Source: Bdellovibrionota bacterium
GTDB lineage: Bacteria; Bdellovibrionota_C; UBA2361; JBGSMV01
Reading direction: 5' to 3'
DNA: 22,161 bases
NCBI GenBank assembly: GCA_044356455.1
Contig: JBIKWF010000069.1
Location: forward strand, 1 to 22,161
The position numbers were made by a program, and so were the translations under genes. Every line of letters begins with the position of its first letter. Within the stretch, counting starts at the first letter, position 1. The notes beneath the pieces were generated by a model that was not told the origin of the DNA, searched no databases, and worked only from the letters and a program-made list of their open reading frames with translations. Shown here one piece after another: positions 2,094-17,230 of this stretch.

Positions 2094-4073
2094 CTACCGA
2101 GAGGCAAGTAGATTCGGCTCAATATCAATCTTCGCCTGAGCTTTGCGCTCATTGAGAAGCGAAGTGAGAACCAATCGGGCGAGTTCCTGACTTTCTCTCT
2201 CCCGGGCTTCGATCACTTCTTTTTGGATATCCGTGACCGTGGGCGTTTCAAGCTTCGTCACTTGGAAGACGTAATAAGTTCCGTCTTTCGTGATGACGCG
2301 GGAAGGCGCAGCCATGGCGGTTTGGGCGCTAAAGAGCTCGCTTCTTAATTCCCCTTGATTAAAGGGGGCTGCGGGCTGAGCGCGTGAGAGACTTGCAAGG
2401 CTTTCAAGCTTTTGCCCGGCCGAGGCTGCTGCCGACTTAAGGTCTTTGTATTTTCCGGCCTTCATCTCATCAACAATGGACTGCGCCATTGCTTTTGCTT
2501 GATTGCCGGCTTCGCGGCGCTTAAGGAGCGCTACAATCCTCTCTTTCACTGAATCAAGCGGCTGCACTTCTGGCTCTTTCGACTGAGCTACTTCAACGAG
2601 CACAAACTTATCTCCAAGGTCGACAAGCTGTTGCTTCTCGTCAACTTGATCGAGTACCCGCTCGGTGAGGCCTACGAGTCCTGTTGGGTCGATGCTCTTG
2701 TCTTGGAGTCCTGCAGCAGGCACCGCGACGAGGGCGCGCGACGCCAGGTCACCTATGGTCACAAAGTCGCTGAGCGGCTTTGAGGCGGCCTTCCATGCAT
2801 CAAGCAGTTCGGCAGATTTCGCTGCGGTAAAGGCTGGGGCTTCGCGCTTCCTGATAATAGTTTCGATTTCAGGACGAACCTCCGCAAGTTCCTTCGCCTT
2901 TTCGGGGGTGATGGTATCGACAGAGAAAATGCGGATGCTTGCACCCTCAACCAGCGACTCGCTCGATTTTCCGGCTTCAAGTGCAAAAACAGCCTTAGCT
3001 GCCTCTTCCCCAAACTTGGTTACAAGTTCTGCGCGGGTGAAGGTTCCAATTTCGCCGCCTTTAGCTGCGGATGCGTCTTTCGAATTAGCCTTTGCGAGGT
3101 CCGCAAATACTCCACCACTCTTAAGAGAGGCAACAAGTCCCTCTGCCTGCTTTTTAAGTTCATCGGAGGGGGCTTTGGGCGCCTCTTCTTTTGCGGCTGC
3201 CTTCTTGTCGCCCTTGGCGCTTGTCTTCTTGGCGGCGGCGACATTTTCCTTGAGTTCAATCATTCGCACGCTGCGCTTTTCTGGCAGCATGTATTCTGAT
3301 TGATGGTCGGTATAATAAATCTCAACGTCGTCAGGGAATACCTCAACAATATCAAGGAACTTGTCGGGGCTAAGCACGGCATAAGAGTAGGACACGCGCG
3401 CGGGGATCTCAAAATCGCTAGCGTTGTCGTCGTAGTGCTGTTTGATCGCTTCTTCTGAGGGGTCTTTGATCTCGCCTAGAAAATTATCTGGGGTAAGCGC
3501 GAGGTAATCTACGGAAGCGGTGGTCTTTTGTTGTAGCACGGCAGCCGCTGTTTCTTTTTCAGAAGAAATCGAGGCGTCACGTACCGCTTGCTCGAGCTGG
3601 GACCTGACGAGGTCTTTGGAGAGGCGGGACTCAAATTCCTGGGCCGTCATGTTCATCTCGCGAAGCAACATGCGATACTGATCGGCTGGGTTTGGCGAGC
3701 CCGCGAGTTCTTTCTCAAGTTGTGCTCGCACAGAATTTTTACCGGCACCGAACCCGAGTGCGCGAGCTTCCTTGTCCATGATGGCCGATTGCACGGCGCG
3801 GTCTACGGCTTGCTGCTGGATACTGAGGCCCGCGGACTCAAGGACTTTGTGATAGTTAAAGCCAAACTGGGCGCGGTACAGCCGGTCGAGCTCTTGGCGC
3901 TCGTTATTGACGTCTTCGTAAGTGAGTTCGGAATCATCTATGCGAATCGCCGCGGCTGAGTTGCGTTGGGGCGCCATCCACTGGTAAGCAAAACCACTCA
4001 TCGCCAGGGCGATGGAAGCAACACAAAGAAATGCCAAGAAGAAGATTCGAAATCTATGTAATGTCCGTAGCAT
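2094..4073 (-). CDS. ppiD: PpiD-like membrane-anchored periplasmic folding chaperone (SurA N-terminal plus parvulin domain)
   Basis: 659 aa with an N-terminal membrane anchor, a SurA_N-like helical region and the parvulin motif FADLAKANSKDASAAKGGEIGTF. Size and layout are typical of PpiD. Confidence 0.8.
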   Translation of the reverse strand: MLRTLHRFRIFFLAFLCVASIALAMSGFAYQWMAPQRNSAAAIRIDDSELTYEDVNNERQELDRLYRAQFGFNYHKVLESAGLSIQQQAVDRAVQSAIMDKEARALGFGAGKNSVRAQLEKELAGSPNPADQYRMLLREMNMTAQEFESRLSKDLVRSQLEQAVRDASISSEKETAAAVLQQKTTASVDYLALTPDNFLGEIKDPSEEAIKQHYDDNASDFEIPARVSYSYAVLSPDKFLDIVEVFPDDVEIYYTDHQSEYMLPEKRSVRMIELKENVAAAKKTSAKGDKKAAAKEEAPKAPSDELKKQAEGLVASLKSGGVFADLAKANSKDASAAKGGEIGTFTRAELVTKFGEEAAKAVFALEAGKSSESLVEGASIRIFSVDTITPEKAKELAEVRPEIETIIRKREAPAFTAAKSAELLDAWKAASKPLSDFVTIGDLASRALVAVPAAGLQDKSIDPTGLVGLTERVLDQVDEKQQLVDLGDKFVLVEVAQSKEPEVQPLDSVKERIVALLKRREAGNQAKAMAQSIVDEMKAGKYKDLKSAAASAGQKLESLASLSRAQPAAPFNQGELRSELFSAQTAMAAPSRVITKDGTYYVFQVTKLETPTVTDIQKEVIEARERESQELARLVLTSLLNERKAQAKIDIEPNLLASR

Positions 4074-4461
4074 TGGTGCAATTTCCGAAATACATATCGC
4101 GGGCGCTCCGTCCCTCCGGCGTATCCGGAGGGGAAGGGTAGTATGCCCATCCTACTTGTGTTCTGACCTGCTCAAGTGCCGTGTGGCAGTCTTGGGCCTG
4201 AGAGGGGCTCGTTAAGATACAGATGAGCGAGGGTTCATCCCCCCGCGCCCCTTCCTCGCCCAGTGGCGTTTCCTTTCGCGGTTTTTCCTCCCGCCCTGGA
4301 ATTGATGCGCTTAGCGTACGCACCATACCAAGTCCCTCATAGAGCTCAAAGTAGCCCTGCAACAGTACCACCCCCCGGCGCGGGACCTCAAGGTAAATGA
4401 CCGTGGTGCTCTCGTCGAGGTGTTCGGTGGCCTGACGTGAGGTAGTCTCGCTTCCTGTCAT
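4054..4461 (-). CDS. DUF4911-like small protein
   Basis: IYLEVPRRGVVLLQGYFELYEGLGMVRTL resembles the DUF4911 core. It overlaps the ppiD start by 20 nt. Start codon uncertain. Confidence 0.6.
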   Translation of the reverse strand: MTGSETTSRQATEHLDESTTVIYLEVPRRGVVLLQGYFELYEGLGMVRTLSASIPGREEKPRKETPLGEEGARGDEPSLICILTSPSQAQDCHTALEQVRTQVGWAYYPSPPDTPEGRSARDMYFGNCTNATDIT

Positions 4462-4615: not shown

Positions 4616-6058
4616 CTATTTGCCTCGTAACCGCGTAACCTCGGCAGTAATGAGTTCATTAACTTTCTTCGGGTTCGCGCTGCCCTTCGATAGCTTCATG
4701 GTTTGTCCGACAAAAAAGGCGTGCAGTCTGTCGTTCCCGCCGATGAACTCTGTCGCTTGCGTCTTATTCTGCTCAAAGACCTGACGAATAATACCGAGGA
4801 TGGCGCCATCGTCAGTTACTTGCTGAAGTCCTTTCGCTTCTACTATCGCCCTCGGGGATTGGCTCGTAGCGAACATTTCTTCAAACACTGACTTTGCCAT
4901 CTTGCCGCTGATGGTATCGCCTTCAACAAGCATGATGAGCTCGCCGAGGTGCTGGGCCGATACCGGCGAGTTCGTAATGTCGAGGCTTTGCTTATTGAGC
5001 GCGCCAAAGAGCTCCGAAGTCACCCAGTTGCACGCAGCTTTGGCGTTGTTGCAGACCTTAAATACTGCTTCAAAATAATCGGCGCACGCACGTTCCGCAG
5101 TTAGGATTGCGGCGTCGTAGGTGCTAAGTCCGTAAACTTCGCAAAGCTCCTTGAGACGCTGCTCGGGGAGCTTGGGAAGTTTGGAGCGAATTTCTTCTAC
5201 CCAGCTTTCAGCTATCACAAGCGGCGGGAGATCGGGGTCAGGGAAATATCGGTAATCAGCGGATTCTTCCTTGGAGCGCATGGGGCGCGTAACGCCTTGA
5301 GCGCTATCGAAGAGGAGCGTCTCTTGCTGCACTTCCTTGCCGCTCTTGAGGACCGCCATCTGGCGCACAATCTCGTACTCAAGCGCTCTTTCGACGAATT
5401 TAAAGGAGTTGATGTTCTTAATTTCGGTGCGGGTACCAAATTTAAGAGTCCCTACAGGGCGCAAAGAAATGTTGGCGTCGCAGCGCAAGCTTCCTTCTTC
5501 CATGTTCCCGTCGCTCACGCCTAAAAAACGCGCGATTTGGCGCACGGATTTAAGGTAGGCACTGGCTTCAGCGGGAGAGCGGATATCGGGCTCGGAGACG
5601 ATTTCAAGCAAAGGCACCCCGGCGCGGTTGAGGTCGACAAGGGAAGAGTGTGTGCGGGTGTCGTGGATGTTCTTGCCTGCGTCCTCTTCCATATGAATGC
5701 GCTTGATGCCGATAGTTCTTACGGCGTCCCCAATGTGCACTTTTATGTGCCCACGTTCGCAAATAGGCTCGTCGAACTGAGAAATCTGATAGCCCTTAGG
5801 AAGGTCAGGGTAAAAATAGTGCTTACGCGCAAAGCGATTAAACTGCCGAATTTCACAGTTCATTGCGAGGCCCATCATGACCGCAAACTCAGCAACGCGC
5901 CGATTGAGCACGGGAAGGCTGCCGGGAAGTCCGAGGGTGAGAGGGTCAATAAACTCGTTCGGGCTTGCACCAAAATCTGCGGAAGCGCCGCAGAAGATTT
6001 TAGTTTTTGTTTGGAGCTGGAGGTGCACCTCAAGTCCCATGACTGCTTCAAATTCCAT
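4616..6058 (-). CDS. gatB: Asp-tRNA(Asn)/Glu-tRNA(Gln) amidotransferase subunit B
   Basis: GLEVHLQL, RKHYFYPDLPKGYQISQ, HMEEDAGK, NRAGVPLLEIVSEPD, YRYFPDPDLPP motifs. Confidence 0.98.
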   Translation of the reverse strand: MEFEAVMGLEVHLQLQTKTKIFCGASADFGASPNEFIDPLTLGLPGSLPVLNRRVAEFAVMMGLAMNCEIRQFNRFARKHYFYPDLPKGYQISQFDEPICERGHIKVHIGDAVRTIGIKRIHMEEDAGKNIHDTRTHSSLVDLNRAGVPLLEIVSEPDIRSPAEASAYLKSVRQIARFLGVSDGNMEEGSLRCDANISLRPVGTLKFGTRTEIKNINSFKFVERALEYEIVRQMAVLKSGKEVQQETLLFDSAQGVTRPMRSKEESADYRYFPDPDLPPLVIAESWVEEIRSKLPKLPEQRLKELCEVYGLSTYDAAILTAERACADYFEAVFKVCNNAKAACNWVTSELFGALNKQSLDITNSPVSAQHLGELIMLVEGDTISGKMAKSVFEEMFATSQSPRAIVEAKGLQQVTDDGAILGIIRQVFEQNKTQATEFIGGNDRLHAFFVGQTMKLSKGSANPKKVNELITAEVTRLRGK

Positions 6059-7918: not shown

Positions 7919-8000
7919 GTCAGACTCCCTACAATACGCGTGCTCTTTAAATGACCCTGCCCAGCGGCATGCTTATCTCAATCAAATAGAGTATCCTCTC

Positions 8001-8062
8001 CCTTAGTGGTCTCTGTGGTCTTAGTGGTTGTTTTTTCAATAAGACCACAGAGGCCACTAAGG
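8001..8062. repeat. 9-mer-based palindromic repeat (ACCAC[AT][GA]AG family), copy A
   Basis: CCTTAGTGGTCTCTGTGGTCTTA (8001-8023) / TAAGACCACAGAGGCCACTAAGG (8040-8062), in the divergent gatC-sthA gap. Confidence 0.85.
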
Positions 8063-10331: not shown

Positions 10332-11692
10332 GTTCTGACGCTCGCCTGCTTTTAGTCGATGATGATGGAGAAGCCGTGCTTAGTCTCTCCCGCGCTTTGC
10401 GCGCGGCGGGATTTAAGGGGGCGCTTGAGGCTGCGGGCAATGCTGAGAAAGCCCTCGCGTTAGCCCTTGAGAGAGACTTCCACGTGGCGGTTATTGATCT
10501 CACCCTGGACGTACGAGAAGGGCCTGAAGGCGGATTTAGGCTTCTTGGTCAGATAGTGCGGGACTTTCCGCTCTGCCGCATCATTGTGCTCACCGGCAAC
10601 GCGAGTTTGCAGCATGGCGTGCGCGCCTTAAGCTCTGGAGCTGCCCATTTCTTAGAGAAGCCTGCGGACCCACGGCATCTTTCGGCGCTTATAGAAGACT
10701 CGGTACGTCAGTCTAACCTAAGGCGTGAATTTGAAGCGCTCAAGCGAAATGAACCTAAGGATGGAATTCAGCTTATCATTGGTAGTTCTCCGGCTGCGGA
10801 GCGAATTCGGCAGGAGGTGCGCTTCGCGGCCAGCCATGCGCAAGCGGTGTTGATTACGGGAGAGACGGGCACAGGAAAGGGGCTTTGTGCGCGCGCAATT
10901 CATGAAGCGAGTTCTAGGAGAGCCCAGCGCCTGGTGCGTTATCAACCAAGCTTCTCCAATGCCGACCTTGTGACGAGCGATCTTTTTGGTCACCAAAAGG
11001 GTTCCTTCACTGGCGCGGAGGGGACTCGCATGGGACTTATTGAACAAGCTGAGAACGGAACGCTTTTTCTTGACGAGATAGATGCGCTCCCGCTAGAGAC
11101 ACAAGTGAGTCTTCTTGGTGTGCTTCAAGAGAAGCGTTATCGCCCAGTCGGCGCTTCCGAAGAAAAAGAAGCGCGCTTTCGGTTACTTTGCGCCTCTAAT
11201 CAAGATTTGGAGCAGTGCGTAAAGAATGGGAGCGTGCGCCGTGACTTTTTTCACCGCGTAGCGCACGCGACCATTCACTTACCGCCCCTCCGTGAGCGCG
11301 CTTCCGATATCCCTGAGCTTGCGGCCTATATTCTTTCTCAGGTGCGAACTCGTGAGCAGCTTAATGTGTTTGAGTTTTCGAGCGCCGCGCTCACCGCTCT
11401 TCAGCAGCATGCCTGGCCTGGCAACATTCGCGAGTTTGAAGCCGTGGTTGAGGGCGCCGTTTTTCGCGCTCAGTTTGAGCAACGCAGCATAGTGGAAGCG
11501 AGTGATGTGCACGTGCTTTCAAGAAGCCCCTCTGGTTCTGAGCTTACGTTCAGCGACCAAGTAGAAGAATATAAGCGAAAGTTAATCCAGGATGCTCTTG
11601 ATAAGAACGCGGGGAATCAAGCAAAGGCAGCGCAGAGTTTGGGGCTTGACCGTTCTACCTTGAGACGAATTCTTGAGCGGACGGGCCGATAG
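10328..11692 (+). CDS. Sigma-54-dependent NtrC-family response regulator (REC-AAA+-Fis HTH)
   Basis: REC motifs LLVDDD, VAVIDL, VLTG, FLEKP. Walker A GETGTGKG, GSFTGA loop, Walker B LFLDEI, WPGNIRE. C-terminal NQAKAAQSLGLDRSTL HTH. Start at ATG 10328. Confidence 0.95.
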   Translation: MSSDARLLLVDDDGEAVLSLSRALRAAGFKGALEAAGNAEKALALALERDFHVAVIDLTLDVREGPEGGFRLLGQIVRDFPLCRIIVLTGNASLQHGVRALSSGAAHFLEKPADPRHLSALIEDSVRQSNLRREFEALKRNEPKDGIQLIIGSSPAAERIRQEVRFAASHAQAVLITGETGTGKGLCARAIHEASSRRAQRLVRYQPSFSNADLVTSDLFGHQKGSFTGAEGTRMGLIEQAENGTLFLDEIDALPLETQVSLLGVLQEKRYRPVGASEEKEARFRLLCASNQDLEQCVKNGSVRRDFFHRVAHATIHLPPLRERASDIPELAAYILSQVRTREQLNVFEFSSAALTALQQHAWPGNIREFEAVVEGAVFRAQFEQRSIVEASDVHVLSRSPSGSELTFSDQVEEYKRKLIQDALDKNAGNQAKAAQSLGLDRSTLRRILERTGR

Positions 11693-11705
11693 CCGTCGCA
11701 GTTAG

Positions 11706-11835
11706 GAAACCTCTGAAAAATTCACCTCTGTGTACCTCCGTGTCCTCTGTGGTGAAATTCTTCATGAAAAATTTCACCACAGAGGACACGGAGGTACACA
11801 GAAGTGCATTAAGAAAACAGATTTTTAGAGTCTCC
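11706..11835. mobile_element. MITE-like element with internal 33-bp perfect inverted repeat (9-mer family copy B); probable bidirectional terminator
   Basis: Left end GAAACCTCTGAAAAA. Inner IR 11727-11759 / 11770-11802. The degenerate right end TTTTTAGAGTCTCC abuts the flagellin stop. It lies between convergent genes. Confidence 0.7.
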
Positions 11836-13089
11836 TCAGGAATCTTGAAGAAGTTTTAGCAAGAGCGCCGGTGATTGATTCGCTTGTGCGAGCACGGCGG
11901 AGGCTACGTCTTGCTGAATTCTTGATTTAAGAAGAGCGCCCGCCTCGCTTGCCACATCAACATCCTGAATTCTTGATGCCGCCGCTTCGGTTGTTTCTCG
12001 CATGCTGCCGAGGAGATTCTTCGCACTTTCGAGGCGGCTTAAAAAAGCGCCGAGCTGACCGCGAGACGATTGAAGCTGAGCCACTCGATTTTCAATGACG
12101 TCCAAAGCTTCGAGGGCGTAGGCTTGAGTGTCGATTTGCGTAAATTCAAGGGCAGAGACTGGAGCGGTTTGTCCAGGGCTGCCGTCGGCAGGGAGTTCGT
12201 TAAAAAATCTTAAGCCTCCGAGATCAATTCCTGCTCGTGTTTGGCTTCCTGAGATTTGTCCGGTGCTTGAGTCGTAACTGAATGAGGCTGAGCTTTCATA
12301 GATCAATTCTCCTGCTGCGTTTCTGCTAGCGACAAGCATGCCGACGCCGCTCGCAAAAAAGTCGGCATTTCCGCTAAATACTACATATTTCGTGCTGCCA
12401 TTAACTTCTACCCGTCCAATTGAGCCATTCCCAAACTTTCGGAAAAGTTCCTCGTCGACCACGGCTCCTTCGGAGAGAGAGGTAATTAAATTAGTGAGTT
12501 CAACGAGATCGCTCCCATCGTAGGTTCCATCCGCGGGGCCTGAGCCACCTCCATCAGTGAAGTCTGCCGAGATAAGAATGTTGCCGCTCAGCCGCCCGCT
12601 GTCGGTAAGATTAAAACCCGTCACGGGGTCTCCAGTTCCACGAATCCCCACTTGAAAGGAAAGTGAGCTTGGGGTTCCTGTACGCCCACCTCGCAATAGC
12701 TTTACCGAGTTAAATTCAGCGGTTTCGCCCTGACGGCCGATCTCAGCAACGAGGCTAAGGTATTCGGTGTCGAGAGACTCGCGCTGAGTGGCGGAGAATG
12801 ATCCGTTTGCAGCTTGGGTGGCTAATTCGCGGAGCCGGTCAAGAATTGAAACTTGGGTAGAGAGTGCGCTCTCTGCAACCGAGAGAGCGGATATGGCATC
12901 GTTAGTGTTTCTGAGAGCTCCGGCATAAAGTCGAGAATTGACTTGAAGACGCGCGGCAACCGCGAGTCCTGCTGGGTCGTCGCTCCCACGGTTGATGCGC
13001 AGACCGGACGCAAGTCTCTCCGCCGAGCGTTCAAAGTCGCTCGTTGCGCGCCCTAGTTGGCGCTGTGCTCTGAGAGAATCGATCTTCAC
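11836..13089 (-). CDS. fliC: Flagellin with shortened N-terminus
   Basis: SLRAQRQL...ERLASGLRINRGSDDPAGLA, RLRELATQAANGS, RGQLGAFLSRLE, SRIQDVDVASE, VLAQANQSP. Probable GTG start at 13089 after AAGGACGAG; the ORF-track start at 13125 is also possible. Confidence 0.9.
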   Translation of the reverse strand: MKIDSLRAQRQLGRATSDFERSAERLASGLRINRGSDDPAGLAVAARLQVNSRLYAGALRNTNDAISALSVAESALSTQVSILDRLRELATQAANGSFSATQRESLDTEYLSLVAEIGRQGETAEFNSVKLLRGGRTGTPSSLSFQVGIRGTGDPVTGFNLTDSGRLSGNILISADFTDGGGSGPADGTYDGSDLVELTNLITSLSEGAVVDEELFRKFGNGSIGRVEVNGSTKYVVFSGNADFFASGVGMLVASRNAAGELIYESSASFSYDSSTGQISGSQTRAGIDLGGLRFFNELPADGSPGQTAPVSALEFTQIDTQAYALEALDVIENRVAQLQSSRGQLGAFLSRLESAKNLLGSMRETTEAAASRIQDVDVASEAGALLKSRIQQDVASAVLAQANQSPALLLKLLQDS

Positions 13090-13276
13090 CTCGTCCTTGA
13101 AACTTTGGCGGTGCTTCTTGCACACGTCCTCAACATCAGAAATCGGTAAGAATATAAGGGGGGTAGATACTTGGGGGCGGAATGAACATCACGAGGGCTC
13201 GGGAAGCATGAATTGGCGGCTTTCTTAGTGAATGCTCGTAGGGGAAACAATGAGAAACAGGGGGCGAGGGAACAGA

Positions 13277-14390
13277 ACCTGAGAGGCAGAGCGCTACGCT
13301 GGAGAATTCCTTTGGGGGAAAACCTCTCTGGCGCGGCGCTCTTCAGTCGTGGACGAGTGTCCATACGCGACCGATGCCATGCCCAATGAACCTCTCAGGT
13401 AGGAAGACCGCGCGGAGTGGCGGTGTCCATTTTGTTCGCGTTCTAAATCTCCAATTGGGGTTGAAAGTGCTGTCTCAAAGCACTTCGATGATGCTTCTTC
13501 CCGCAGTCAAATTGCGGCGTCGGACTCTACATAGTCAGGCGGTGGCTGCAGCCTTCCTCGGAGCAGGCTTGCGGCCCCTCGCGAGATGCTCGGCCTTGAG
13601 CTGCAGATGCCGCTCGTGCAACTGCCTCCAGGCCGAAATGGCATGGGTCGGGTCGCTGCCACGGAAGACTGGCAGTCTGTCCTTGGCCGGCTTGTCGAGC
13701 TCGCGAAGCGCCCCAGCTGAGGCAGCAACGAGAGTTGTCGGGCCGAGGAATGAGAGCGGAACGAGCTTGTCACGGAAGGTTCCGTGTAGCACGAGCGCCT
13801 TCTCCACTGGACAGTGCCGAATGTCGAGGGCAGGCCTTGGGAAGCCCGCGTCCTTCAGGTGTGCGATGATTTGCACCCGAAGCAGCTCTCGGCTCTTGGG
13901 GGACTTGGGAAGATCTGCCACGGGGAGCTCCACGAGATGCTCCCCGAACAGTCCGCCCGGCTGCTTCATGGCTTCGGCGACAACCAAAAGCCCGTAGAGC
14001 ACCATGCCAGAAGCGAGAGTTGGGTTAACGCCGAGCTCCCTTTCCGCGTAGTGCGCTTCGATGTGCGCGAGCACATCCTTGCCAAGATGCCGATCTTTTC
14101 CGTCAATTCTGATAACTGCCATGAGAACTCCTCTGTCTGAGGGCCTTGCCACACTAAGAGCGTCTCTTCTCTTAGGTGACCCCCCTCATGCCACGTGCAT
14201 GAGGGTAAACGCCCCGCCACGAGCGGATGCGCTTCACTGAGTCGTGGGGACTGCCACGGCTTAGCGAAGCGCATCTATTCGGACGAACAGAAGGAGGAGC
14301 AGGAAACGTGAACTACCTAAAAACCTTTACAGCGTAGCGCTGCCTCTCAAAAATCGTACGCCATGGGCGTGCAATTTTTGAGAGACAACG
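13277..14390 (-). other. Structured cassette 1 (terminal inverted repeats enclosing an ORFan)
   Basis: TGAGAGGCA-GA-GCGCTACGCTG (13280-13301) is complementary to CAGCGTAGCGC-TGCCTCTCA (14330-14349). Local stems 13277-13286/13391-13400 and 14338-14390. Confidence 0.7.
13535..14122 (-). CDS. Hypothetical protein, 195 aa, basic C-terminal tail (cassette 1 ORFan)
   Basis: Long GC-rich ORF with AGAGGAG SD before ATG 14122 (MAVIRIDGKD). No family recognised. Confidence 0.75.
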   Translation of the reverse strand: MAVIRIDGKDRHLGKDVLAHIEAHYAERELGVNPTLASGMVLYGLLVVAEAMKQPGGLFGEHLVELPVADLPKSPKSRELLRVQIIAHLKDAGFPRPALDIRHCPVEKALVLHGTFRDKLVPLSFLGPTTLVAASAGALRELDKPAKDRLPVFRGSDPTHAISAWRQLHERHLQLKAEHLARGRKPAPRKAAATA

Positions 14391-14594
14391 ATGATAGTCT
14401 TACTCAATTCAAAGCTTTGAAAGAACACCTGAGAGGCACGCAGCATGAGAAGAAGAACCTTCTCAAAACCGAGTGGCGCTCGCTTACTCCTTGGTGGGCG
14501 GGAGTGCGGCGCAAGATCCTCTCAGGCTCAGGGCAGCGCGTGGTGGCGCGGCCCTGATGGTGGGGAGGGGGGCGAGAAGCTGTGTGCTCAGCGA

Positions 14595-15194
14595 TTAGGT
14601 CTTGGGCTCAGCATAGCTGACCCAGGTGTCCTTGTTCTCTGACTTCCGCACCGAATTCGGCCAGCCATTCTTCTGGCGCGACTTCATGAAGCGCACCAAA
14701 TAGCGAGCGATGCCGTGCGCGAGGTCAACCCCGAAGAGCTGCTCGAAGGGGATGACCACTGGAGAGCCACTGGCATTCACGCCGTGGCCCCGGAGCCGCG
14801 AAGGCTCCTTTCGCCCTCCGTCCTTGATGCCGAAGCGCGGGAGGAACTTCAGGGCCTCCACACCTTGGCATGCGGCCTGAAGATTGCGCGGCAAAGCGAG
14901 ATCAAGTCCGTTCCGCGTGAAGATGTCTCCGCTGAGACCTTCGAACATGGGATCCTGGCCCGTGATCCCGCAGACCACGTGCATGGCATAGGCCTTGGCC
15001 AGGAGCTTCTGGTCCCGATCGAGCCCGAGCTTGGCCTGCGCGGCCAGCTTCTGGATGAGCGCGTCATAGACGCACTCGGCGTTCCTGCGCTTCGTCACAA
15101 GAGCAGGCTCTTGTGACTGACTTCTCCTGCGGCTTGCCCTCGAAAGGGGGCCGCGGGGTGCCTTGCTTCGGCGAACTGCAACGGTACTGCTCAT
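14595..15194 (-). CDS. Hypothetical protein, 199 aa, Arg-rich N-terminal arm (cassette 2 ORFan)
   Basis: AAGGAG SD before ATG 15194 (MSSTVAVRRSKAPRGPLSRASRRRSQSQ). GC-rich; no family recognised. Confidence 0.75.
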   Translation of the reverse strand: MSSTVAVRRSKAPRGPLSRASRRRSQSQEPALVTKRRNAECVYDALIQKLAAQAKLGLDRDQKLLAKAYAMHVVCGITGQDPMFEGLSGDIFTRNGLDLALPRNLQAACQGVEALKFLPRFGIKDGGRKEPSRLRGHGVNASGSPVVIPFEQLFGVDLAHGIARYLVRFMKSRQKNGWPNSVRKSENKDTWVSYAEPKT

Positions 15195-15311
15195 GCTTAC
15201 TCCTTGTCTCTGGAGCCTAGCGGTCCACTCAGCCACGAACTGAGTGCGACGAGTTGCTCTGGCGAATTTTGCCATGAGCACCTCGCCTCATTTGCGAAGG
15301 AAAATTCCCCC

Positions 15312-15378
15312 CTTAGTGGTCTTGGTGTTCTTAGTGGTTGTTTTTAAAACCACCACTAAGAACACAAAGACCACTAAG
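15312..15378. repeat. 9-mer-based palindromic repeat, copy C
   Basis: CTTAGTGGTCTTGGTGTTCTTAGTGGT (15312-15338) / ACCACTAAGAACACAAAGACCACTAAG (15352-15378). Confidence 0.85.
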
Positions 15379-15678
15379 AGGATGGGGGGGCGAGCGCCGC
15401 AAATGAAGCGAAGTGCTCAAGGAAAAGACGATTTTAGAGGGGAGCGGGCATAGAAGTAGAGGTACGGTTATCAAAACCTTTTAGTTACATGCTGCTGCCT
15501 CTCGTTCAGAGCTTGCTCTCGGCGCAGCCTCAAAAGAGGCGCGTAGGGGCAAGGCGCTGAGCGAGAGACAGGAAAATGCTAACTACCTTAATCTACTGTA
15601 AATGAACGGCCTCTGGTCTATCGGGCGACCAGCAAAAGAGTCTCCTGGAATGTTCCTGTGAGCTGCTGTTTGTGTGTC

Positions 15679-15706
15679 CTAACAAGGCGCTAACACTTTG
15701 CTAACA
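15679..15706. promoter_or_regulatory. Three helically phased CTAACA direct repeats (candidate OmpR/PhoB-type operator)
   Basis: CTAACA at 15679, 15690 and 15701, an exact 11-bp period. Confidence 0.45.
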
Positions 15707-15773
15707 TTGGCTGGGGGGGCTAGTAAAGCACCATTTGTAGTTTAAAAGGTAAATTTGGATTTGCGCTTAATTT

Positions 15774-16118
15774 TTAATCCGCTCGTCTTGGCGGGCGCCC
15801 TGTGACTTCAGATGGATTCGAGCGAGACGAGCCTAACTCTCTTGAGGCGTGTGGGTATTGTTGCTGAGGCTGCTCTGTGGTTCCAAAGCCTCCCTCTCGG
15901 TGAGGGGTGCCTTGGTGAGGGGTGCCTTGGTGAGGGGTGCCTTGGTGAGGAGTGCCATTGAAGGATGCGGGCAAGGTCAGCGAGGAGTAGTTGATTGGTA
16001 CGCGAATGACGCCTTCGTCTCCGGTAGGAAATTCATAAACTTGCGGAGTACCAGCTGTTTCTCCGCTGGTCTTTCCGGCGCCACCAACTTGAGGGGTATC
16101 TTTTTGCATATCAGCCAC
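15774..16118 (-). CDS. Hypothetical low-complexity protein with GTPH[QR] repeats
   Basis: GGAGGTG SD upstream of GTG 16118. In-frame 15-bp repeats; 114 aa. Confidence 0.55.
   Translation of the reverse strand: MADMQKDTPQVGGAGKTSGETAGTPQVYEFPTGDEGVIRVPINYSSLTLPASFNGTPHQGTPHQGTPHQGTPHREGGFGTTEQPQQQYPHASRELGSSRSNPSEVTGRPPRRAD
15899..15958. repeat. 15-bp tandem repeat x4
   Basis: GGTGAGGGGTGCCTT x3 plus GGTGAGGAGTGCCAT. Confidence 0.9.
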
Positions 16119-16235
16119 GCAACACCTCCGTTTGAAAGGGCTGACTTCGTATCGCTAATCTTGGGGCTACGCAAGAGGGGAGCTGTTCGAAGGCTCTGAA
16201 AAGAGTCCGCTCGGTGGACTCTCCTTTCCATGTTT

Positions 16236-16307
16236 TAAATCAACCACAGGAGGCGCGGAGGACGCAGAGAGAGAAAAAATAACATGCTGAGGTTTTTCAA
16301 AGGTTCC
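16236..16307. mobile_element. Right half of the MITE-like element (copy D)
   Basis: AACCACAGGAGGCGCGGAGGACGCAGAG...AAAAAATAACATGCTGAGGTTTTTCAAAGGTTCC resembles 17168-17230 and abuts the stop codon of the SnoaL gene. Confidence 0.6.
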
Positions 16308-16739
16308 TCAAGAATGTAACCGGCGCTTGATGGCCCGAATCGCGCTCCCAAGAAGGGGAATGTGCTCATAGATAAAGGCGCCCATATCAAAATAGTCGCG
16401 GTGGTAGTCGACAAGCAAAGACCCTGGAGCAAAAATGATGTGCGAAACTCCGGGAAGCGCAATTTCATTGCCGCCGTTGAGCCTTCTCGCTTTAAGGCTC
16501 ATGGTCCATACGGCGGTGCAGGTCTCGCCTTCCTCTACGAGGGATGGAAAATCAAATCGAATTGACTCGACATTCTGATAGAGCCCTCGATAATATTCCG
16601 CAATCTTTGCGCGTCCTTTGATGTGTACGATAGGGTCATTAAATTCGGCTTCTGAAGCATAGAACTCGTTTACGAGTGCTAGGTTTGAGACGCTGAGCGA
16701 GTTGAAGAATTTTTTTATATGGTCTTTTCTTGCACTCAT
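16308..16739 (-). CDS. NTF2-like/SnoaL-like protein
   Basis: FYASEAEFNDPIVHIKGR, WTM, GVSHI and HRDYFDMG motifs. AAGGAG SD before ATG 16739. Confidence 0.88.
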   Translation of the reverse strand: MSARKDHIKKFFNSLSVSNLALVNEFYASEAEFNDPIVHIKGRAKIAEYYRGLYQNVESIRFDFPSLVEEGETCTAVWTMSLKARRLNGGNEIALPGVSHIIFAPGSLLVDYHRDYFDMGAFIYEHIPLLGSAIRAIKRRLHS

Positions 16740-16769
16740 GGGGCGATTTCTCCTTAGGAGATTAGTAGT

Positions 16770-17102
16770 ATGACTTCGCAATCGGTCCGTCAGATTTCAC
16801 CTAAAGAGCTTAAGAAGAAACTCGACAATGGGGAACAGCTCACGCTTATCGACGTGCGAGAGCCACACGAGCGAGAGATCGCTTCCTTGGGGGGCGATTT
16901 AATCCCCATGAGCGCAGTCCTTGATGCTCTTGCGAGAATTCCACGTGAGGGGACGGTGGTGGTTTACTGCCGAAGCGGCGGCCGGAGTGGGAAAGTTGTT
17001 GAGGCTCTTCAAGCGCAGTGTGGGTATACGAATCTTTGGAATCTTGAGGGGGGGACTCTGCGCTGGAGTGATGAGGTAGATAGTTCGGTGCAGAAATACT
17101 AG
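16770..17102 (+). CDS. Single-domain rhodanese-like sulfurtransferase
   Basis: LIDVREPHE, active loop YCRSGGRS and NLEGG; similar to the MoeB/MoeZ C-terminal rhodanese domain. Confidence 0.9.
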   Translation: MTSQSVRQISPKELKKKLDNGEQLTLIDVREPHEREIASLGGDLIPMSAVLDALARIPREGTVVVYCRSGGRSGKVVEALQAQCGYTNLWNLEGGTLRWSDEVDSSVQKY

Positions 17103-17230
17103 GGCGCATCTGAAAAAGTCTGCTCTGTGAACTCTGTGCCCTCTGTGGTTGGTTTAAATTGTTGAAAAACCACAGAGGACACAGAGCTCACGGAGAAAAA
17201 AATAAAATATCGAGGTTTTTCAGAGGTTCC
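17103..17230. mobile_element. MITE-like element (copy E) flanked by CTAG on both sides
   Basis: CTAG|GGCGCATCTGAAAAA ... TTTTTCAGAGGTTCC|CTAG, with inner IR 17123-17150 / 17168-17195. Confidence 0.75.

Follow-up and report, generated by a model that had tools for sequence, protein, structure and literature searches.

The two tandem cassettes described here each carry one ORFan between long-range inverted repeats that share an outer helix and differ in the inner one, and a further copy exists in a related genome. The best explanation is that each mRNA carries a 5'/3'-UTR fold-back that controls its stability or use, in the manner of hok, icaR and hbs; we put this forward tentatively, at close to but below an even chance. 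The pairing in RNA, the starts and ends of the transcripts and the role of the pairing are what we infer.

Architecture of the two cassettes

The window, by which the whole analysed stretch of 22,161 nucleotides is meant, comes from a Bdellovibrionota bacterium. Direct reading and a repeat search place inverted repeats about 1.07 kb apart around each of two minus-strand ORFans. In cassette 1, positions 13280-13301 (TGAGAGGCAGAGCGCTACGCTG) pair with 14330-14349 (CAGCGTAGCGCTGCCTCTCA), with 20 of 20 nucleotides paired and a 2-nt bulge in the left arm. In cassette 2, positions 14431-14447 (GAGAGGCACGCAGCATG) pair with 15488-15503 (CATGCTGCTGCCTCTC), with 16 of 16 paired and a 1-nt bulge in the left arm. 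An earlier, sequence-only reading had given these repeats and their pairing at the same coordinates, together with the one-sided bulge of 2 nt versus 1 nt, which sits in the left arm every time. It had also described the units as head-to-tail and 37 bp apart; they do lie in tandem, but the gap was counted from where a local hairpin (14338-14390) ends, not from the repeat arm. The outer helix GAGAGGCA/TGCCTCTC, which had been called invariant, is 8 bp long in both window cassettes but only 7 bp in the same-genus relative (G001). The inner helix (X with X') is cassette-specific and measures 8-12 bp.

The stems of the three cassettes are 16, 18 and 20 bp long with an asymmetric bulge, and their 16-20 paired nucleotides lie outside the ORFs in all three. 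The pairs were assigned by hand, a full-length MAFFT alignment having set the 3' arms out of register. The stem lies at least 200 nt upstream of the Shine-Dalgarno sequence. Each cassette has four oriented copies of the GAGAGGCA-type motif, and the same 12-mer, ACCTGAGAGGCA, stands at 13277 and at 14427.

On the sense strand, the 3' arm of cassette 1 (13278..13301, minus strand) reads X'-bulge-UGCCUCUCAGG and is followed by the U-rich tail GUUCUGUUCC (13268-13277), while the 5' arm (14330..14349, minus strand) consists of UGAGAGGCA and the inner helix GCGCUACGCUG. The 3' arm of cassette 2 (14427..14447, minus strand) is followed by GUGUUCUUUC on the sense strand, and its 5' arm (15488..15503, minus strand) is GAGAGGCA plus GCAGCAUG. 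The U-rich tail is present at this position on the sense strand of all three copies (UUUUCUUUCC in the relative), and none of the three has a mirrored A-tract before the 5' arm. Because it occurs on the sense strand only, the tail is what would be expected of an RNA 3'-end signal, unlike symmetric DNA sites. The arms and hairpins are all found at UTR positions, outside coding sequence.

Two further features adjoin these elements. A nested-palindrome, MITE-like repeat (15309..15381, no strand assigned) is inserted in the 5' UTR of cassette 2; it belongs to a dispersed family and is separate from the panhandle. The flank at 15571..15780 (no strand assigned), which is kept in the same-genus genome and contains three TGTTAG direct repeats, CTAGTAAAGC, is a candidate promoter or regulatory region.

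Local hairpins competing with the long-range helix

The conserved strands also have partners close by, TGAGAGACA at 14379-14387, GAGAGACA at 15563-15570 and CCTCTCAGG at 13391-13399 and 14518-14526, and since each strand has such a local partner the long-range helix competes with local hairpins. The 3'-UTR hairpin H3 of cassette 1 (13278..13399, minus strand) is closed by CCUGAGAGG (13391-13399) and CCUCUCAGG (13278-13286), and folds at -61.1 kcal/mol on the minus strand. The corresponding H3 of cassette 2 (14428..14526, minus strand) has CCUGAGAGG at 14518-14526, and its loop contains a 12-nt copy of the Shine-Dalgarno region of ORF2 (14482-14493). At the 5' side, H5 of cassette 1 (14338..14390, minus strand) brings UGUCUCUC (14380-14387 on the plus strand) together with the same GAGAGGCA strand, and in its apical part it resembles a terminator on both strands; H5 of cassette 2 (15496..15571, minus strand) is formed by UGUCUCUCG and CGAGAGGCA.

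A sense transcript would read UGUCUCUC (strand a), a loop, GAGAGGCA (strand b), X, a structured leader of about 200-300 nt, the ORF, and then CCUGAGAGG (strand c), a loop, X', UGCCUCUCAGG (strand d) and the U-rich tail. With a start upstream of strand a, the minimum-free-energy folds consist of H5 and H3, the panhandle is not formed, and long-range pairs reach probabilities of at most 0.37 for cassettes 1 and 2. With a start at strand b, partition-function calculations give panhandle pairs with p = 0.86-1.0 in all three cassettes, and the inner helix of the relative stays at p of about 0.96 even with 115 nt extra upstream. Because G-U pairs are absent from the panhandle helices and the folding energies have no consistent strand bias (H5 of cassette 1 favours the minus strand, H5 of cassette 2 the plus strand), pairing in RNA looks the same here as complementarity in DNA.

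Conservation in a same-genus genome

The sequence-only reading had left it to be seen whether a homologous locus with complementary ends exists, and one does. The one genome of the same genus has a third copy at the matching locus, framing an ORF2 homologue of 24% identity in the same orientation as in the reference. The flanking sigma-54 activator is 61% identical between the two genomes, against the 24% of the framed protein, and the sulfatase is 52% identical to a homologue that sits on another contig of G001. The G001 locus has neither cassette 1 nor the flagellin gene.

The inner helices of the three copies are all complementary yet different (GCGCUACGCUG in cassette 1, GCAGCAUG in cassette 2 and GCAGCGUGCAU in G001), in agreement with the covariation proposed earlier from the window cassettes. 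Cassette 2 and the G001 copy differ by one compensatory inner-helix change, from A-U to G-C, and their 5' arms are otherwise identical over CGAGAGGCAGCAGC.UG, so the long-range pairing was kept through the change; the inner helix of cassette 1 is wholly different and still complementary. This covariation comprises three sequences, one locus and one stepwise compensatory change, and covariation would also be seen in inverted repeats that recombination keeps identical.

The framed proteins

ORF1 (P0001; 13535-14122, minus strand) encodes 195 aa and ORF2 (P0002; 14595-15194, minus strand) 199 aa, the N-terminus of the latter being basic and disordered. Both have a ribosome-binding site of the GGAG type. 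The expectation of one GC-rich ORFan of about 200 aa per cassette is borne out: the GC content of both is 0.62 against 0.525 for the genome, with GC3 values of 0.70 for ORF1 and 0.77 for ORF2 against 0.50 in the neighbouring flagellin gene. Across the framed ORFs of both host species (n = 3) GC3 is 0.70-0.78, in genomes of about 0.525 GC.

The two proteins have zero matches in Pfam, NCBIfam, PHROGs and PADLOC, and both a search for related loci in genome, metagenome and viral contigs and tblastn against plasmids and phages were negative. AlphaFold models were obtained with pLDDT values of 85.5 and 71.1. Searched with Foldseek against the PDB, neither gave anything at E <= 0.001; the best Z scores of VIA-align against 48,161 chains, 6.7 and 5.3, came exclusively from helical-hairpin matches, and the ESM Atlas yielded no usable match for either protein. 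The models suggest the same order of secondary structure for both (three helices, a three-stranded sheet, two helices), and hhalign of the ORF1 family against the ORF2 family detects no similarity (probability 0.2). The proteins are real but extremely rare, and are best explained as products of lineage-restricted, fast-evolving genes arranged in tandem. Further members of their families, P0003, P0004, P0005 and P0009 for ORF1 and P0007, P0008 and P0013 for ORF2, are encoded on short contigs (0.8-2.8 kb).

Occurrence in this and other genomes

An anchored test found 204 GAGAGGC...GCCTCTC pairs spaced 300-3000 nt apart in the 4.7-Mb genome. Only two of them extend inward by at least 8 nt, and both are in the window (12 and 8 nt); the other 202 extend by 5 nt or less. 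In an unanchored genome-wide scan for low-copy bulged inverted repeats, 28 scored at least 17 compared with 20 in a mirror-repeat control, the maximum score of which was 23, so one such inverted repeat alone is unremarkable. What makes the locus significant is therefore that the core is shared, that the cassettes stand in tandem and that a second genome has a replicate. As a dispersed repeat the motif was not found in this genome.

Across the phylum 124 genomes were compared, and the exact pattern turned up only here and at the matching same-genus locus. Pattern matches in G066, G078 and G100 were rejected, because they either fall within the coding part of an IS200-like gene or lack a partner arm, and a search allowing one mismatch gave noise, with a partner arm at none of 17 checked loci. 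Three further candidates lie in this genome. The one at C192:9376-10074 is ascribed to chance because it falls within two coding genes, and that at C120:34747-36132, around a PilT-type ATPase, is not preserved in the G001 orthologue, where the best repeat scores 11 against 12 for the mirror control. A candidate at C152:2493-3297 surrounds a lipoprotein-like ORFan and has no homologue in 40 relatives. Rfam returned nothing at the gathering score, its E-value matches being generic hairpin-shaped miRNA models, and a tRNA search gave none.

RNA and DNA libraries

Within 11000-17200, the only unique sequence represented in contigs from RNA libraries, which were made in two studies, is 13371-13968 and 14609-15162; the contigs are unstranded and come from runs chosen for containing this stretch, and DNA carry-over could account for them. 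None covers the arms or the 5' UTRs. In a promoter and terminator scan the single sigma-70-like site fell on the wrong strand, terminators were seen only at hairpin tops, and no transcript end or promoter could be placed. Reading GAGAGGCAGC... as a sigma-54 -24/-12 site was rejected because, by eye, the GG-N9-GC spacing is one nucleotide short and cassette 2 is without the GC. The genome codes for RNase III, which scored 229 bits and passed the cut-off.

The stretch is chromosomal DNA, present in 20 DNA runs and with housekeeping genes on its flanks. Contigs from two other lake metagenomes, X2 (13352-14421) and X3 (14323-14692), have the reference arrangement and run across the right-hand boundary of cassette 1, the junction of cassettes 1 and 2 and the left arm of cassette 2; as listed, they leave about 13024-13352, from the flagellin gene to cassette 1, unbridged. 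No credible inversion or circle joint was seen in these contigs, which drop rare variants. The only two joints found have sides of 20-21 nt and resemble other organisms.

Possible explanations

The sequence-only reading had favoured modules of a new family, with excision, circularisation, replication or packaging as possible roles. This is not supported, given the restriction of the motif architecture to one locus in the genome and, for exact matches in the phylum, to the matching same-genus locus, the lack of relatives of the proteins in plasmids, phages and viral contigs, and the reference arrangement of the X2 and X3 contigs. The same reading had seen no transposase, recombinase or reverse transcriptase and no target-site duplication. 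Both observations stand: Pfam detects none of these enzymes among the 21 longest of the 55 ORFs of at least 80 aa in the 22-kb window, and the flanks of all three copies are free of target-site duplications. In the searches made, no sign of mobility was found, be it extra copies, target duplications, a recombinase, joints or plasmid, phage or viral matches. The fallback then offered, a fold-back regulatory mRNA, is the best fit in view of the sense-strand U-rich tail, the UTR position of the arms and the conserved complementarity. RNA-library contigs that include sequence of both ORFs, the folds predicted for a start at strand b, the RNase III gene and the precedents of hok, icaR and hbs also favour it. 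Against it count the local hairpins predicted for longer transcripts, the small number of instances and the distance of the stem from the Shine-Dalgarno sequence, in which it differs from icaR and hok.

Such a fold-back would have two mutually exclusive states. In one, the local hairpins a:b (H5) and c:d (H3) are formed. In the other, b-X pairs with X'-d in an end-to-end stem of 16-20 bp with the conserved one-sided bulge, and this would take place in the mature or processed transcript. By pairing the termini, the stem could shield both of them from ribonucleases, or it could offer a bulged double-stranded site for RNase III-type processing from a longer transcript. It might also keep the mRNA inactive until processed, as in hok.

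The main rival, in our view rather unlikely, is that the repeats are DNA-level substrates for a recombinase encoded elsewhere, so that the 1.07-kb segments are invertible or the locus is a hotspot for exchange of GC-rich foreign cassettes; the homology needs of strand exchange, or gene conversion, would then keep the arms identical. Repeats made of a conserved part and a segment-specific identical part are consistent with this, as are the foreign composition of all three framed ORFs, the missing cassette 1 and flagellin gene at the G001 locus, and an ORF2 that has diverged far more than the flanking genes, as if different cassettes had entered. A search for co-occurring recombinase genes did find an integron integrase, on contig C92. 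However, Pfam places no recombinase among the window ORFs searched, further copies in the genome are absent, and orientation is unchanged in G001 and at the boundaries bridged by the X2 and X3 contigs, the two short joints looking like other organisms. The attC-like repeats that belong to this integron are unrelated and do not occur in the window, and a 1-2-nt indel between the arms together with a U-tail on the sense strand only is unexpected of recombination sites. Improbable as well, and somewhat more so, is a kind of framed gene cassette not described before, delimited by an end-to-end stem that has a bulge and a conserved apical motif, in which foreign-composition, fast-evolving ORFans are moved or silenced as modules of about 1 kb. 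The high GC3 kept in both host species and the different gene content of the locus in the two are compatible with it.

Long-range complementarity could also be a relic of tandem duplication without present function, inherited or due to chance, with GAGAGG/CCTCTC serving only local hairpins of a terminator or leader. The dominance of local hairpins in the minimum-free-energy folds and the chance occurrence of isolated inverted repeats this strong in the genome agree with this, and the order of secondary structure common to both models would suit very old paralogy. We regard it as distinctly improbable, because the inner helices X/X' (8-12 nt) pair only at long range and are left unexplained by local hairpins, because their complementarity is perfect in all three copies despite different sequences, and because hhalign shows no similarity between the protein families. 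Non-autonomous transposons carrying a passenger gene are an already weak proposal and very improbable: the ends do resemble terminal inverted repeats with a common outermost sequence, the cassettes are alike in size and the genome is MITE-rich, but target-site duplications and dispersed copies are missing, no matching autonomous element was found, and a shared transposase would not tolerate an inner repeat half that differs between copies. Hardest of all to credit are paired operator sites, where a DNA-binding protein would recognise GAGAGGCA at the two ends as well as in the additional copies, loop the DNA and so silence the foreign genes. The four oriented motif copies per cassette and a sigma-54 activator encoded beside the locus in both genomes would suit such a protein, whereas inner helices that vary and remain complementary would go unexplained, the b-X segment is not a sigma-54 promoter for the reasons given above, and other places show no enrichment of the motif in a similar arrangement.

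A viroid-like or Obelisk-like circular RNA was rejected, as the stretch is chromosomal and its folds are branched and not rods. The most likely reading is an mRNA fold-back, which would be a new variant of the hok/icaR/hbs kind, rather than a new mobile element.

Comparison with known systems

Natural bacterial mRNAs with pairing ends amount to a handful of cases, the documented ones being hok, icaR and hbs, and our literature search on natural panhandle or paired-termini mRNAs found only an engineered design. Three natural variants of one design are on offer at the locus in an uncultured lake bacterium and its relative: the outer helix is common to all, the bulge stays in place, the inner helix is free to vary and competing hairpins are built in. 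The effect of end-pairing on the lifetime and translation of an mRNA could readily be examined with them. Should the framed genes turn out to move between genomes, their stems would amount to a cassette boundary of a new type; framed cassettes, if real, would mean that structure-specific machinery inserts modules at hotspots or that bacteria restrain new genes by end-pairing generally.

Like these units, integron gene cassettes are about 1 kb in size, carry a single promoter-distal ORFan apiece, all oriented alike, and have an imperfect hairpin of 95-120 nt 3' of the ORF; the genome also encodes an integron integrase. An integron identity was rejected: the attC boxes R'' (RYYYAAC) and R' (GTTRRRY) are missing, the H3 stems being CCUGAGAGG/CCUCUCAGG, with AAC...GTT flanking the H3 stem only in G001, and the two attC-like repeats of the integron, whose intI is on contig C92, match nothing else in the genome. 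The cassettes also differ from attC in having two hairpins per unit and long-range complementarity of 16-20 nt, where a split attC is expected to give 6-7 nt.

The hok mRNA, from the hok/sok system of plasmid R1, is about 0.4 kb long and encodes a toxin of roughly 50 aa. Its tac/fbi fold-back pairs the 5' end with the 3' end, and alternative local partners of the same strands allow the fold to switch after processing (PMC9841398). To that extent hok and the cassettes are alike, as the two ends of one mRNA pair and the same strands have local alternatives. In hok, the fold-back controls the Shine-Dalgarno sequence and an antisense RNA acts on the mRNA, whereas the cassettes have a loop of about 1 kb, proteins of about 200 aa, a stem far from the Shine-Dalgarno sequence and no known antisense RNA. 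In icaR of Staphylococcus aureus, the 5'/3'-UTR pairing is cut by RNase III (PMC3868564); there a UCCCCUG motif pairs with the Shine-Dalgarno region, while the cassettes pair their extreme ends and have no anti-SD. The long-range inter-UTR stem of hbs in Bacillus subtilis is of similar length, 14 bp, and modulates ribonuclease access (PMC5737220). However, hbs is one housekeeping gene, cleaved by RNase Y, with neither a motif common to neighbouring genes nor competing hairpins made from the same strands, both of which the cassettes have. Engineered paired termini make RNAs abundant and stable (PMC1635301). In pre-rRNA, inverted repeats around an RNA of 1.5-3 kb form a stem cut by RNase III, and where units follow one another in a transcript each has its own stalk (PMC6582327). 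A processing stalk of this type takes about two helical turns of double-stranded RNA. The pre-rRNA stalks frame rRNAs, whereas the 16-20-bp stems of the cassettes frame mRNAs, and here cleavage would be hypothetical.

Locus and encoded proteins

The two cassettes lie on a chromosomal stretch, contig C26 of the 216-contig, 4.7-Mb assembly of an uncultured lake-water bacterium, and the window is present, in full or in part, in 20 DNA and 4 RNA runs with lake-water or freshwater-metagenome labels. According to Pfam the surrounding genes are ordinary (gatCAB, a SurA-like PPIase, a sigma-54 activator, flagellin, a SnoaL-like protein, rhodanese, sulfatase and feoAB). Two further minus-strand genes, both preceded by a GGAG-type ribosome-binding site, lie in the interval that separates the flagellin gene (11836-13125, also on the minus strand) from the SnoaL gene: ORF1 (P0001, 195 aa, 13535-14122) in cassette 1 and ORF2 (P0002, 199 aa, 14595-15194) in cassette 2.

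The ORF1 and ORF2 proteins are real. Relatives of ORF1 (P0003-P0005 and P0009) show 48-69% identity and those of ORF2 85%, 62%, 28% and 24%, and both families keep their length and many invariant columns. The proteins are extremely rare, with about five clusters apiece among 5.8 billion proteins, and when 91 genomes of the order were searched with P0001 and with an ORF2-family profile, nothing matched outside one same-genus genome (G001). Four family libraries yielded zero matches, an Atlas search found nothing, fold searches with usable models (pLDDT 85.5 and 71.1) gave no convincing match for either protein, and no similarity was detected between the two families. The three framed ORFs are compositionally unusual, their GC content being 0.62-0.66 and their GC3 0.70-0.78 against a genome GC of about 0.525; GC3 is 0.50 in the adjoining flagellin gene. 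Residues 110-173 of P0001 gave a phmmer match to six stretches of the 1822-aa DUF5018/peptidase-M1 protein P0010 (E 6e-9), possibly reflecting a common small beta-rich module.

The window also contains nested-palindrome repeats of dispersed families (8000-8035, 11726-11800, 15309-15381 and about 17109-17195). The repeat at 15309-15381 has more than 80 blast matches across the genome, and two of these sites have metagenome contig depths of 240-1470. A 15-nt tandem repeat, TGAGGGGTGCCTTGG, present at 15896-15958 in three exact copies and one diverged copy, lies inside the overlapping unannotated ORFs 15774-16118 (minus) and 15849-16199 (plus), for neither of which family searches matched anything.

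End-to-end repeats and a third copy

The complementary ends described in the sequence-only reading were confirmed for both cassettes. In cassette 1, 13280-13301 pairs with 14330-14349 (20/20 nt; left-arm bulge of 2 nt), and in cassette 2, 14431-14447 pairs with 15488-15503 (16/16 nt; left-arm bulge of 1 nt). The outer helix GAGAGGCA/TGCCTCTC is common to both, and a repeat search of the window found the same 12-mer, ACCTGAGAGGCA, in the two cassettes, whereas the inner helices differ (GCGCTACGCTG, cassette 1; GCAGCATG, cassette 2). When all GAGAGGC...GCCTCTC pairs spaced 300-3000 nt apart in the genome (n=204) were scored for inward extension, only cassette 1 (12 nt) and cassette 2 (8 nt) reached at least 8 nt, the other 202 extending by 5 nt or less. 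When bulged inverted repeats of any kind were sought without an anchor, 28 low-copy pairs scored at least 17, against 20 in a mirror-repeat control with a top score of 23, so a lone bulged inverted repeat of such strength is unremarkable in 4.7 Mb. The case for the panhandles rests on the common core, the tandem layout and the replicate in G001.

At the matching locus of G001 (L022), a single minus-strand cassette separates the orthologous sigma-54 activator gene (61% identity) from the rhodanese gene; neither a copy of cassette 1 nor a flagellin gene was found there. The arms are GAGAGGC at 4309 and GCCTCTC ending at 5443, spaced 1128 nt apart. The inner helix (GCAGCGTGCAT) has a length of 11 nt, and the position of the bulge in the window cassettes is taken by a 2x1 internal loop. 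The encoded 208-aa protein is a distant ORF2 homologue (24% identity over 172 residues, E 3e-9). The 5' arm is nearly unaltered between cassette 2 and G001 (CGAGAGGCAGCAGC[A/G]TG), and the sole inner-helix difference, A to G, is compensated by T to C in the opposite arm. The earlier claim that the inner helices differ yet remain complementary holds for all three copies. The flank past the 5' arm (window 15571-15780; L022 5447-5720) is an intergenic block kept in both species, in which TGTTAG is directly repeated three times at intervals of about 11 nt and CTAGTAAAGC also occurs. The cassette, or else a divergent transcript, may have its promoter or a regulator-binding region here.

Pattern searches produced one homologous locus with complementary ends, that of G001, and none else among 124 genomes of the phylum. 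In these genomes the pattern CTGAGAGGC-N(68-106)-CCTCTCAG matched the three known copies and four other places, which were dismissed because they lie within coding sequence or lack a partner arm. For a second pattern, taken from the 5' module, the three known copies were the sole exact matches, and its one-mismatch matches were noise (partner arm in 0/17 loci checked). At L029 (G066:C22), L032 and L030 a search pattern occurs by chance in the coding sequence of a multi-copy 324-aa gene, which by eye looks like an IS200/RAYT-type transposase with an HIHLV motif.

A search for like frames around other genes of the window's genome gave three matches, none of which is counted as a family member. 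The C192 frame lies inside coding sequence and is a chance match. The C120 frame (34747-36132, PilT-type ATPase; 7+12 bp, 1-nt bulge) was rejected on its G001 orthologue, where the best repeat scores 11 versus 12 in the mirror control. The C152 frame (2493-3297; 17+4 bp, starting GAGAGAG) encloses a GC3-rich (0.78) lipoprotein-like ORFan without a homologue among 40 relatives. The framed genes of C152 and C120 are GC-rich, and their repeat arms have GAGTAGTG in common.

Sense-strand anatomy and folding

On the sense strand, the 5' side reads UGUCUCUC (a), a loop, GAGAGGCA (b), the inner strand X and a conserved AAGGUUU, after which a leader of 200-300 nt with strong hairpins precedes the ORF; in cassette 2 one leader hairpin has acquired the dispersed palindromic repeat at 15309-15381. 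The 3' side reads CCUGAGAGG (c), a structured loop, X', UGCCUCUCAGG (d) and a U-rich tail. Strand b has two possible partners, a close by (hairpin H5) and d at the far end. Strand d can likewise join c close by (hairpin H3) or b at the far end. The sole partner of X is X'. Whole-transcript folds that include strand a give the two local hairpins, and folds starting at b give the panhandle in 3/3 copies, with pair probabilities of 0.86-1.0; the G001 inner helix still has a probability of about 0.96 with 115 nt extra upstream. The U-rich tail (GUUCUGUUCC, GUGUUCUUUC and UUUUCUUUCC in the three copies), which resembles that of a terminator or 3'-end signal, has no mirror image before b; no other feature is clearly asymmetric and specific to the sense strand.

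The ORF2 Shine-Dalgarno region (15195-15206, sense CAAGGAGTAAGC) has an exact 12-nt copy at 14482-14493, within the 3'-UTR hairpin loop of cassette 2; we estimate the chance of such a copy within 1.1 kb at about 0.04. Cassette 1 has a looser counterpart (AGGAAUUCUC versus AGGAGUUCUC). Such a copy could serve as a decoy or as an antisense-RNA target.

RNA and DNA contigs

Contigs from two RNA libraries of different studies fall on both ORFs (X19: 13371-13531, 13556-13968 and 14609-15125; X23: 13523-13673, 13833-13981 and 14991-15162), and elsewhere in 11000-17200 they touch dispersed repeats only. As a sign of cassette expression this is weak: the runs were picked for containing a stretch of the window, the contigs are unstranded, none crosses an arm, and DNA carry-over is possible. 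DNA contigs from two further samples (X2, 13352-14421; X3, 14323-14692) have the reference arrangement and span the right-hand boundary of cassette 1, the junction between the cassettes and the left arm of cassette 2. Only two joints were reported, with sides of 20-21 nt and loose ends typical of other organisms. Of the discrete forms anticipated earlier, inversions, circles and empty sites were not seen in the DNA contigs, a data type blind to rare forms.

Possible roles of the frame

The frame around the two ORFan genes is real, conserved and unusual. The earlier proposal of a new family of mobile or replicating elements found no support in any test made here and seems improbable, and mobility of the cassettes is likewise not supported. 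As had been noted, there is no target-site duplication, and Pfam gave no transposase, recombinase or reverse transcriptase for the 21 window ORFs submitted to it; no further copies were found in the genome, and no relatives of the proteins in plasmids, phages or viral contigs.

The main rival appears unlikely to us: the locus would be a hotspot where GC-rich foreign genes enter, with the repeats as its DNA recombination sites. It would agree with the foreign composition of the framed ORFs, with the different genes that each species has at the locus and with the very low identity between two ORF2-type proteins; recombination, too, would hold the arms identical, and the helices lack G-U pairs, which would separate RNA from DNA pairing. 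The genome encodes an integron integrase (contig C92:1-2791; TIGR02249, 428.8 bits versus a cut-off of 265), upstream of which lie two attC-like repeats of the classical kind, each about 95 nt long (121-220 and 961-1062, 88% alike), that match nothing elsewhere in the genome; the array is cut off because the contig is only 4450 nt. Unlike integron attC sites, the window hairpins have no R boxes.

The panhandles are best explained as mRNA 5'/3'-end pairing of a new form, a fold-back that we favour tentatively because selected end complementarity, competing hairpins and a 3' tail occur together. End complementarity would be kept under selection at both termini of a transcription unit, and the built-in competing hairpins with the sense-strand 3' tail would follow the design of known 5'/3'-UTR interactions such as those of hok, icaR and hbs. 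The fold-back might protect the ends, direct processing of a read-through transcript from cassette 2 into cassette 1 (and flagellin), or keep the message inactive. For hok, a long-distance 5'/3' stem (tac/fbi) is described as keeping the mRNA locked until 3' processing (PMC9841398). The icaR 5'/3' pairing is reported to create a substrate for RNase III (PMC3868564), an enzyme also encoded in the present genome, and in hbs a 14-bp interaction is described as modulating RNase Y (PMC5737220). In E. coli, RNAs given engineered paired termini are reported to become abundant and stable (PMC1635301).
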